A stretch of DNA of 44,404 bases. It comes from a virus (lineage: Duplodnaviria > Heunggongvirae > Uroviricota > Caudoviricetes). The position numbers and the translations under genes were made by a program. The notes under the pieces are model-generated. The model ran no database searches, was not told the DNA's origin, and saw only the letters and a list, made by a program, of their open reading frames with translations. Within the stretch, counting starts at the first letter, position 1, and every line of letters begins with the position of its first letter. Shown one piece after another: positions 40,272-41,025 of the stretch. The stretch lies in the IMG/VR virus record IMGVR_UViG_2874951433_000009; one strand, 5' to 3'.

Positions 40272-40740
40272 ACATAAGGAGTACATCCATGAGCTTACAG
40301 GAGTTGTTTGAGCTCGTCCTCTGTGTCCACTTGGTCTGCCAGATGCTCTACAGGGAGTGATAGATAATAACAATCAGCAGTATGCCCGCAATAGCTATTG
40401 CTCTGGTGCTTACAGGTCTTCACTTTGCGGTCGGTGGGGGCTAGTAGCGGTAGGTTATGACCTTGTATTAAAAAAATCTCACAAAAATCTCTGTAGGTAT
40501 CTAATAGACAAAGGTCGGTGCCTCTCCCCCCTTGGCCCCTTTCAAGTCTGGACGATTGGGGCCACTGTCTTAAAGTTAGGACTTCGGTTACTCGTTCCAG
40601 AGTCACGAGAGGACTTGACCAGAGATAAATTAATGTGTAACCATAACTGTAACCACAAGGATTCATCATCCTTTAGGAAGCAAATGGTTAGCGGCTGATT
40701 ATCTTCGATACCTCGATTCCCGCTGCCCGCTCCAGTTAGA

Positions 40741-40786
40741 GTCTTTCAGTCTGCGATGATGGGAAATCCCGGAGTGACTGAAAGAC
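40741..40786. repeat. Perfect 10-bp inverted repeat gtctttcagt / actgaaagac with 26-nt spacer
   Basis: Read directly from the sequence; lies in the ORF-poor region upstream of the holin. Confidence 0.8.
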
Positions 40787-40793
40787 GTTTAAG

Positions 40794-40865
40794 TTATGAA
40801 TGATCGCTTTTTTTGCAAAATTGCTGTGCAGAAATACTAACCTTCGGGCAGGCGATCATTCATAA
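40794..40865. repeat. Perfect 14-bp inverted repeat ttatgaatgatcgc / gcgatcattcataa with 44-nt spacer enclosing a promoter-like TTGCAA...TACTAA
   Basis: Read directly from the sequence; the spacer contains ttgcaa-16 nt-tactaa. Confidence 0.8.
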
Positions 40866-40939
40866 GCACTCTGCTTTTATTCCGATTAACTGTGGGTGGT
40901 TTGTTGGATAGAGTGCTTCCCTTACTGTATATATCGTTT

Positions 40940-40965
40940 CGCCCGCTTTTGCGGGTTTTTCTTTT
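40940..40965 (+). terminator. Rho-independent terminator about 60 bp upstream of the holin start (tR'-like)
   Basis: gcccgc-tttt-gcggg followed by tttttctttt. Confidence 0.7.
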
Positions 40966-41025
40966 CAAATCCCTTTCATTTCTCAGTGTAAAACTACGCC
41001 ATCCGTTATTTGCGGAGGTGAGGCT

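Follow-up and report, generated by a model that had tools for sequence, protein, structure and literature searches.

The 754-bp interval at positions 40272-41025 of a 44,404-nucleotide stretch of viral DNA (IMG/VR record IMGVR_UViG_2874951433_000009; hereafter the window, to which all coordinates refer unless another sequence is named) lies immediately upstream of an S21-type holin gene. An earlier note had pictured it as a structure-rich region in which lysis genes stand behind an intrinsic terminator with no adjacent gene for the Q antiterminator, and had proposed a late leader, a structured non-coding RNA or the remains of a deleted Q gene. Using megablast against phages and complete E. coli genomes, we found that the interval splits at 40712/40713 and, to judge from its homologues, is a composite junction of two unrelated mobile-element pieces. 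None of the complete E. coli genomes searched covers at least 80% of it. It is highly probable that the locus as a whole consists of nested mobile elements, with the end of a chromosomal-type island on the left, a prophage leader on the right and the scar of an insertion sequence (IS) beyond the island.

Along the + strand, the interval comprises a variable non-coding part of the island's right arm (40272-40613), a conserved att arm corresponding to the integrase-distal arm of attP (40614-40712), an attR core that duplicates the last 22 nt of a phage tRNA-Gly(UCC) gene (40713-40734; TCGATTCCCGCTGCCCGCTCCA), three leader hairpins (40736-40792, 40794-40865 and 40866-40918) and an intrinsic terminator (40941-40965), which ends the tRNA/leader unit upstream of the holin. 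A terminator scan placed the stem-loop, GCCCGCTTTTGCGGGT followed by TTTTTCTTTT, at 40941-40956 plus its tail, in agreement with the strong terminator described earlier. The repeats reported in the earlier note were recovered by a repeat search with one adjustment of length. The GGCCCC...GGGGCC stem in the variable arm is the 7-bp pair TGGCCCC/GGGGCCA (40533-40539/40558-40564), and the conserved arm holds the 7-nt direct repeat TGTAACC (40636-40642 and 40648-40654). Hairpin 1 contains a perfect inverted repeat of 11 bp, not 10 bp (40741-40751/40776-40786), and hairpin 2 is closed by the 14-bp perfect repeat (40794-40807/40852-40865, with 44 nt separating the arms). An additional 9-bp perfect repeat (40864-40872/40910-40918) forms the outer stem of hairpin 3.

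We compared the inverted repeats with 300 dinucleotide-preserving shuffles of the 754 bp, counting perfect repeats with loops of 3-60 nt. The longest repeat in the shuffles averaged 7.3 bp and reached 10 bp at most, compared with 14 bp observed, and three repeats of at least 9 bp were present where 0.10 were expected. Counted alone, the 7-bp GGCCCC stem and the TGTAACC repeat are each within chance, and the latter is meaningful only through its conservation.

Open frames exist in the interval, among them frames of 113 aa (40357-40698, +), 124 aa (− strand) and 32 aa (40813-40911), and could in principle encode small proteins. The 113-codon frame gave no PHROG match, however, and the frames are frameshifted or broken by indels in the closest homologues (L130, L131, L132 and L004); the HK639-type version of the leader carries a 1-nt indel within the 32-codon frame. 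Small-protein coding is thus extremely unlikely, and the earlier judgement that the 754 bp lack a convincing coding frame stands.

An island arm joined to a phage tRNA-Gly

On the basis of its alignments, the 441-bp left piece (40272-40712) is recognisable as the non-coding integrase-distal arm of a small tyrosine-integrase island, belonging to a family whose usual site is the 3' end of chromosomal glyU, the gene for tRNA-Gly(CCC). Positions 37960-40735 are collinear, at 93% identity, with the right-hand 2.7 kb of islands in strains 21AR0133 and LR-64-1, both of which sit directly after chromosomal glyU, beside actS. The complete island of LR-64-1 (~6.1 kb) encodes a 544-aa tyrosine integrase, a Rha-family regulator, a small open reading frame (ORF), a DUF6971 protein and a 373-aa protein of unknown family, followed by ~430 bp of non-coding DNA up to attR. 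Arms related to 40272-40712 were found in 223 genomes. Most of the related islands are 4-5 kb long and occupy the same site, but their cargo differs and consists of DUF4145 and KilA-N proteins. In a scan of species representatives, the sole relative was a Pectobacterium genome with the same gene order after tRNA-Gly(CCC). The integrases of the relatives are 538-563 aa long, are encoded directly after the tRNA and carry a DUF6538 N-terminal domain; the other domains among the relatives are Rha, Bro-N, KilA-N/ANT, DUF6971 and DUF4145 (PD-T7-4), alongside unknowns.

The arm itself falls into two parts. Positions 40272-40613 are nearly identical to Logan contig L135 and 82% identical to L003 and L130, are not conserved in the other-cargo variants of an alignment of six island variants, and contain no conserved ORF. 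The GGCCCC stem lies here, and the RNA fold is unremarkable (z = −2.1). We read this part as lineage-specific non-coding DNA. Within it, AAAAATCTC occurs twice, 11 nt apart (40472-40491); this repeat, which L130 and L135 retain and L131 and L132 retain in part, may serve as a site for bending or for an accessory protein. Positions 40614-40712, in contrast, are the only block common to all six variants and are ~90% identical in many glyU islands, the conserved portion beginning with CTTGACC at 40614 and making up the final 100-125 bp of the arm. L004, L131, L132, L133 and L120 also have the tandem CTGTAACC motif in their attL arms, at 75-95 nt from the core, where the TGTAACC tandem appears as cACTGTAACCaacACTGTAACT. 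Because the tandem motif is present in both arms and the right arm is conserved over its last 100-125 bp, the TGTAACC copies are probably arm-type integrase sites.

The attR core (40713-40734) matches exactly the 3' terminus of the tRNA-Gly annotated in L001 and in L002 (PhiR47_1), and ARAGORN found no whole tRNA in the window. In chromosomal copies, the island terminates with ...CTTCGATAC, after which part of the glyU 3' end is repeated as TTCGATTCCCTTCGCCCGCTCCA. The island in the window has the same terminus, but is joined to TCGATTCCCGCTGCCCGCTCCA and the phage leader, so that its triplet is the phage-type GCT and not the glyU-type TTC. The almost identical arm of L135 sits at a chromosomal-type attR in the TTC form. 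The phage tRNA-Gly and glyU share the blocks GGGTTCGATTCCC and GCCCGCTCCA (shared blocks of 13 and 10 nt).

Intact prophage-embedded copies of the island were identified in E. coli EPSSH018 (L004) and in the IMG/VR contig L120, the only match among 2.9 million viral contigs. In both, attL joins the 5' part of the phage tRNA-Gly to the island-type TTC-GCCCGCTCCA, while attR keeps the phage GCT. Such reciprocal hybrids are expected of site-specific exchange inside the shared GGGTTCGATTCCC block. ARAGORN reads the hybrid at attL as tRNA-Gly(UCC); the gene is still recognised because it is rebuilt from an island-borne 3' end, as in tRNA-targeting islands. An attL with a whole tRNA is likewise present in the intact relatives L003 and L131-L133. 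The island, ~6 kb long in its intact relatives and encoding there a tyrosine integrase of ~540 aa, entered the tRNA-Gly gene of a PhiR47_1-type lambdoid prophage. We infer from these junctions that insertion was integrase-mediated, with strand exchange in the T-loop segment. The arm and core would serve the integrase and accessory proteins at excision, as in lambda-type systems, a role that is moot in the window copy because its integrase and attL have been lost.

The junction could instead have arisen by homologous or illegitimate recombination between a glyU island and the prophage at their shared tRNA-Gly 3' sequence. A single junction, attR, survives in the window, the two tRNA-Gly genes do share the two blocks, and the locus is rich in IS elements and rearrangements. 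These blocks are short for homologous recombination, however, as RecA normally needs longer homology. Moreover, L004 and L120 each show two junctions with the reciprocal hybrids that site-specific T-loop exchange predicts, and the island ends at exactly the same nucleotide in the window and in the chromosomal copies. We hold such recombination to be improbable and retain integrase-mediated insertion. Embedded copies number only three (the window, L004 and L120), all in IS-damaged prophages, which fits occasional use of a secondary site.

Further signs of damage were noted in these and related copies. The IS911-like end sequence that occurs in the window also lies within the right arm of L120, ~190 bp from attR (3300-3400, − strand), and in L004 an IS3-family element splits the holin gene downstream of the embedded island. 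Several relatives also have an altered tRNA fragment at attR, reading ACCTAGGTTCCC in place of TTCGATTCCC in L003 (8380-8408) and L130 (9615-9640), and TCTTCGGCTCCC in L004 (8066-8090). Damage of this kind to the attR tRNA fragment is typical of phage-inducible chromosomal island (PICI) satellites, not of prophages (PMC10111431).

The cargo that remains in the window lies on the + strand directly to the left of the arm. Positions 37962-38291 encode the C-terminal 110 codons of the Rha-family regulator, cut by an IS; in a tblastn comparison they correspond to residues 125-234 of the 234-aa Rha protein of L003 (98% identity), with a weak ANT/KilAC match. They are followed by a 64-aa ORF (38298-38492), a DUF6971 protein (38575-39030; Pfam E = 1.8e-43) and a 405-aa protein of no known family (39054-40271), for which Pfam, PHROG, PADLOC, NCBIfam and PDB sequences gave no match. 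This module of Rha, small ORF, DUF6971 and 373-405-aa protein (window 37962-40271; L130 3662-9215; L134 2052-7847) is kept from E. coli to Pectobacterium (54% identity), always after tRNA-Gly(CCC). In L130, ~1.3 kb between the island integrase and Rha (5297-6585) carry no annotated gene in the RefSeq record. The DUF4145 protein of the sibling islands matches the PADLOC model of the defence gene PD-T7-4 (E = 2e-100). Because sibling islands at the same site carry this validated gene together with a KilA-N protein, the module of unknowns may, by analogy, also serve in defence against phages.

The tRNA-to-holin leader and its RNA structure

The right piece has a different origin. Positions 40713-41025 are 100% identical to four phages, PhiR47_1 and vB_EcoS-689R5 among them, and to many prophages, in which the matching stretch runs from the last 22 nt of an annotated tRNA-Gly up to the holin start. 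Compared with PhiR47_1, the identity continues without gaps at 99.1% over 40713-42815, spanning the S21-type holin, YdfR/DUF1327, lysozyme and Rz genes. To the right of 40713, the segment is therefore the conserved leader of known phages, a finding that the earlier note had said would refute its reading and that does not extend to the left piece. We found the leader in 540 of 5426 complete E. coli genomes (~10%), always downstream of Q and in the order last tRNA, leader, holin; throughout, its immediate 5' neighbour is a tRNA-Gly gene or the 3' fragment of one.

Intact relatives have Q first, then an intrinsic terminator, a tRNA array (Ile or Met, Lys or Arg, Thr, Gly), the leader with a second terminator, and finally the holin. 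Q lies 1.4-2 kb upstream in L001, L002, L008, L009 and HK639, and at least two intrinsic terminators separate it from the holin. PhiR47_1 (L002) has two, and the terminator site of the window corresponds to its positions 6229-6244. The Q-to-lysis leader of HK639, in which four terminators are annotated, carries a homologue of the leader at 77% identity; where the window has its terminator, the HK639-type clade has another terminator hairpin. The terminator at 40941-40965 is thus the one that follows the phage tRNA array, not a tR' beside pR'. A scan of 39900-41300 by simple consensus match called no sigma-70-like promoter, and neither pR' nor qut was found in the interval. The promoter-like TTGCAA-16-TACTAA proposed in the earlier note was among the candidates not called, its second hexamer lacking the final T in every homologue. 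The antitermination-dependent late logic that the note had drawn from the terminator holds for the right-hand 291 bp only, the left 441 bp being island arm. The right piece belongs to the lambdoid late-leader class, but is not a pR'-qut-tR' module proper.

These observations also bear on the proposal that the interval is a degraded Q gene with its pR'-qut-tR' module. Its place ahead of the holin and the terminator that it contains are compatible with such a remnant, and Q is missing from the neighbourhood. Six Q or Q-like proteins from related loci nevertheless gave no tblastn match anywhere in the window, which agrees with the observation that no Q is adjacent and leaves no trace of a remnant. 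The left 441 bp are homologous to island arms beside glyU, the right 313 bp run from the tRNA-Gly 3' end to the holin at a place that in intact phages is 1.4-2 kb downstream of Q, and the scan was empty of promoters. We give this proposal almost no credence. The late leader or structured RNA envisaged in the earlier note is borne out for the right part only; the left part is an island arm, and the interval is two pieces, not one.

Our analyses showed that the leader (40735-40965) is a conserved RNA structure, specific to the + strand, in which three hairpins are followed by an intrinsic terminator. Folding of 40735-40975 gave −80.9 kcal/mol on the + strand (z = −5.4), with none of 200 shuffles as stable, compared with −61.3 kcal/mol (z = −3.6), or 20 kcal/mol weaker, on the − strand. 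The predicted minimum-free-energy fold consists of hairpin 1 (40736-40792), which begins 2 nt past the tRNA CCA end, hairpin 2 (40794-40865), whose 14-bp repeat closes a branched loop with a UUCG mini-hairpin, hairpin 3 (40866-40918), a 22-nt open stretch and the terminator. Using a pattern from hairpin 1, we retrieved more than 120 viral contigs and built an alignment of 59 distinct sequences (A2). When the window's own fold was placed on A2, 93% of cells were paired and 21 pairs had changed on both sides. None of 500 shuffles reached the observed covariation values, and slid-partner controls were 39-45% paired, a comparison to be read with the caveat that slid controls are usually outdone by a fold derived from a single member of an alignment. 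RNAalifold, which was not given the window fold, yielded the same three hairpins with 17 compensated pairs.

The compensatory changes are spread over all three hairpins. In hairpin 1, A2 pairs 15/58 and 16/57 show UA<->CG and CG<->UA switches in 17-18 sequences, with a G·U pair on the + strand in 15 sequences. In hairpin 2, they fall at A2 pairs 69/146 (AU<->UA, 20 sequences), 77/138 (UA<->GC, 19), 82/134 and 83/133, and in hairpin 3 at 153/209, 162/208 and 163/207 (13 sequences each). The many G·U pairs, found on the + strand only, point to an RNA in the sense of late transcription.

We also considered that the inverted repeats act as DNA, either as protein-binding palindromes or around a promoter in the 14-bp repeat, or that they are due to chance. 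The GCAAAATTGC core in hairpin 2 is palindromic and highly conserved, and the TTGCAA-16-TACTAA match of the earlier note lies within the repeat. A DNA-level role does not account for conserved G·U pairs on one strand, for the better folding of that strand or for compensatory changes that preserve pairing; the empty promoter scan and the missing final T of the −10-like hexamer speak against a promoter, and the repeats surpass all 300 shuffles. We judge these options very unlikely and keep to an RNA structure.

Two observations concern the ancestry of hairpin 1. Positions 40741-40786 resemble a degenerate tRNA-Gly from anticodon stem to T arm (CAGUC UGCGAUGAUGGG..CCC versus CAGCC..GCUGAUGAUGCGGGUUCGAUUCCC). 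In the viral contig L013 (1905-1990), the 3' half of hairpin 1 directly follows a tRNA-Gly 5' half, a fusion that looks like the product of recombination between the two similar segments; no tRNA is read there by ARAGORN.

For the function of the leader, we favour a cis-acting role in the late transcript, to which we give about an even chance. The terminator would halt RNA polymerase not modified by Q. Excision of the tRNAs from the late transcript would then create a 5' end no more than 2 nt from hairpin 1, and the hairpin could there protect the lysis mRNA against 5'-end-dependent attack by RNase E. A second possibility, suggested by analogy and decidedly less probable, is that the leader is released as a small RNA (sRNA) of the tRNA 3' external transcribed spacer (3'ETS) type. 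3'ETS-leuZ is an sRNA that a tRNA operon reportedly gives off from its 3' external transcribed spacer. As in that RNA, the leader begins directly after the last tRNA of its unit and ends at a Rho-independent terminator with a U tail, but it is unrelated in sequence, ~230 nt long, highly structured and located in a phage late leader. We assign a similarly modest probability to a leader with no role beyond termination and processing.

Known RNA families did not account for the leader. In Rfam, the covariance-model search proposed in the earlier note, no family reached the gathering score at the leader, and matches with E ≤ 10 over 40150-41150 were only noise; the folding proposed alongside it returned the three hairpins and terminator described above. 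The leader sequence was absent from papers by text search. The put-type antiterminator RNA was rejected, the putL-like RNA of HK639 being annotated at a different place (34187-34312). PasA-D are sRNAs of enteropathogenic E. coli (EPEC) prophages encoded beside holin genes (10.64898/2026.05.13.724894; PMC8550237), and we checked them because of this location beside the holin operons of lambdoid prophages. They resemble the leader in being intergenic, in lying near a holin/lysozyme operon and tRNAs, and in ending at a terminator, but none of their four published Northern-probe sequences occurs in the window, even with up to 6 mismatches allowed. In prophage PP10 of EPEC strain E2348/69 (L139 2058-2366; NC_011601 2837057-2837365), a tRNA-Gly pseudogene precedes a published Hfq-associated sRNA candidate whose terminator lies just ahead of the next gene, the same layout as that of 40735-40965. 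This candidate is analogous in position and unrelated in sequence, and was likewise set aside.

Loss of Q and decay of the lysis locus

The left boundary of the island remnant is an IS3-family insertion sequence, IS911-like, on the − strand (36711-37959), which truncates both the island and a P22-like large terminase gene (terL). It contains orfA and orfB, with the transposase domains HTH_Tnp_1 and rve and an NCBIfam transpos_IS3 match, and is bounded by imperfect terminal inverted repeats of 29 nt (36709-36737/37933-37961). Its ends look like those of IS911, a tentative assignment. No target duplication is present, the 3 bp on either side being different. The element now lies between, and adjoins, the truncated terL and the truncated island Rha gene. 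The window lacks the integrase end of the island, attL, the tRNA array and Q, and tblastn detected no homologue of the island integrase in it.

These features suggest a sequence of events. The ancestral prophage, of the PhiR47_1 type, carried Q, a terminator, a tRNA array ending in tRNA-Gly(UCC), the ~290-bp leader, and the holin, YdfR, lysozyme and Rz genes. Insertion of the island would first have placed Q ~6 kb from the lysis genes, and an IS-mediated rearrangement would then have taken everything to the left of Rha codon 125, including attL, the tRNA array and Q. We infer that the IS junction arose by recombination between two IS copies, by inversion or by deletion. Q would thus be missing because the island separated it from the lysis genes and the IS911-like element then removed it, not through the simple deletion proposed in the earlier note; the window lacks the island integrase because the IS removed that end.

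To the right of the leader, on the + strand, lie the S21-type class II holin (41026-41241), YdfR/DUF1327 (41246-41560), lysozyme (41616-42149) and an Rz pseudogene (42146-42613). Compared with PhiR47_1, Rz carries an AGA->TGA change at codon 3, and the holin, YdfR and lysozyme genes are intact. The cassette has neither a promoter nor Q in cis and is bounded on its right by IS2. Given this IS2 and the nonsense codon in Rz, the lysis locus is a decaying remnant.

The rest of the window contains other mobile-element pieces, and the whole has no full-length match in the 5426 complete E. coli genomes. Positions 1632-21818 are a myovirus-type prophage that matches E. coli prophages at 97-98% identity and carries an integrase (1632-2792) as well as genes for tail and portal. 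Three co-oriented ORFs (3054-5586) lie where relatives annotate glucosyltransferase (gtrII in some), and this prophage resembles Shigella flexneri serotype-converting phages. The resemblance and the abundance of IS copies suggest that the host is Shigella-like. A P22/Sf6-like morphogenesis block on the − strand (24039-36705) encodes ejection proteins, capsid, scaffold and portal, its large terminase lacking the N-terminal part where the IS cuts it at 36711. A second IS3-family element (22704-23913) contains an ALIL frameshift pseudoknot (23516-23632; 120 bits), the only Rfam match in the window.

Several points weigh against the nested-element account and the roles assigned within it. The window holds attR only, so that integrase-mediated insertion at its locus is drawn from L004 and L120. 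It likewise holds one IS junction, and Q, the tRNAs, attL and the integrase would be expected at the reciprocal one. The arm-type role of TGTAACC is read from sequence, integrase binding being putative, and the role of the leader is deduced from position, sequence and predicted fold. Covariation is mostly between two clades, the window type and the HK639 type, and because the variation comes mainly from these, independent substitution events are far fewer than the cell counts. Invariance of the hairpin 1 inner loop is partly by construction, because 53 of the 59 A2 sequences were fetched with a pattern that fixes this loop; it was also invariant among BLAST-derived homologues. Finally, the locus is decayed, so none of its parts need be functional here.

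Related systems and biological meaning

The leader resembles the lambdoid late leaders of lambda, 21 and 82, with their Q, pR', qut and tR', in being the native leader before an S21-type holin, in lying downstream of Q in its relatives and in containing an intrinsic terminator that late transcription must read through. It differs in following a tRNA array, as the genes downstream of Q do in Stx phages, in having its own three-hairpin structure with no annotation or Rfam family, and in that Q, pR' and the tRNAs are absent from the window. The island resembles tRNA-targeting tyrosine-integrase islands in duplicating the tRNA 3' end, with probable exchange in the T-loop block, and shares with these and with lambda-type attP the repeated arm motifs in both arms; the difference is that it occupies a secondary site, a phage-borne tRNA of another isoacceptor (UCC instead of CCC).

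The closest published parallel to the nesting is with helper-embedded PICIs, for which 14 sites in late protein genes and a doubled attP motif (tgTGTATTGCa x2) have been described (Tommasini, Mageeney and Williams 2023, PMC10111431). As in those elements, the island is nested in a lambdoid late region and points in the direction of late transcription (+ strand for the island genes, attR, leader and holin alike), has a doubled attP motif, here TGTAACC x2, and belongs to a family with Bro-N-network proteins (Rha, KilA-N and ANT). In contrast, its integration site is in a tRNA gene of the phage late leader, not in a late protein gene, and the family normally lives in chromosomal glyU. Its integrase type has a DUF6538 N-terminal domain, and no alpA, primase or capsid-redirecting genes were seen among the domains of the relatives. 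Any satellite behaviour of the glyU islands is putative. A literature search found nothing specific on islands integrated in phage-encoded tRNAs.

The apparent puzzle of lysis genes behind a terminator and without Q is resolved by nested mobile elements and scrambling by IS elements, an everyday occurrence in Shigella-like genomes rich in IS. Most of the interval is ordinary; what stands out is the conserved RNA structure of the leader, which has no described family. An RNA of ~230 nt, supported by covariation, follows the phage tRNA-Gly in ~10% of complete E. coli genomes with neither an Rfam family nor an annotation. In addition, a phage-borne tRNA in a late operon can occasionally receive a glyU island, a group with one lineage that bears a validated anti-phage gene, and this adds tRNA targets to the concept of elements embedded in helper prophages.

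A broader reading, which we offer tentatively and consider unlikely to hold in full, is that the leader is a functional, undescribed phage RNA and that glyU islands are switched on through the phage tRNA-Gly. If this were true, the RNA would stabilise the 5' end of the late lysis mRNA after tRNA excision or, alternatively, would be an Hfq- or ProQ-type sRNA released from a phage tRNA trailer. The secondary site in the phage tRNA-Gly would put the islands inside a Q-dependent late transcript, induction of the resident prophage would switch them on in cis, and the helper-embedded arrangement would be reached via a tRNA gene and not a late protein gene.

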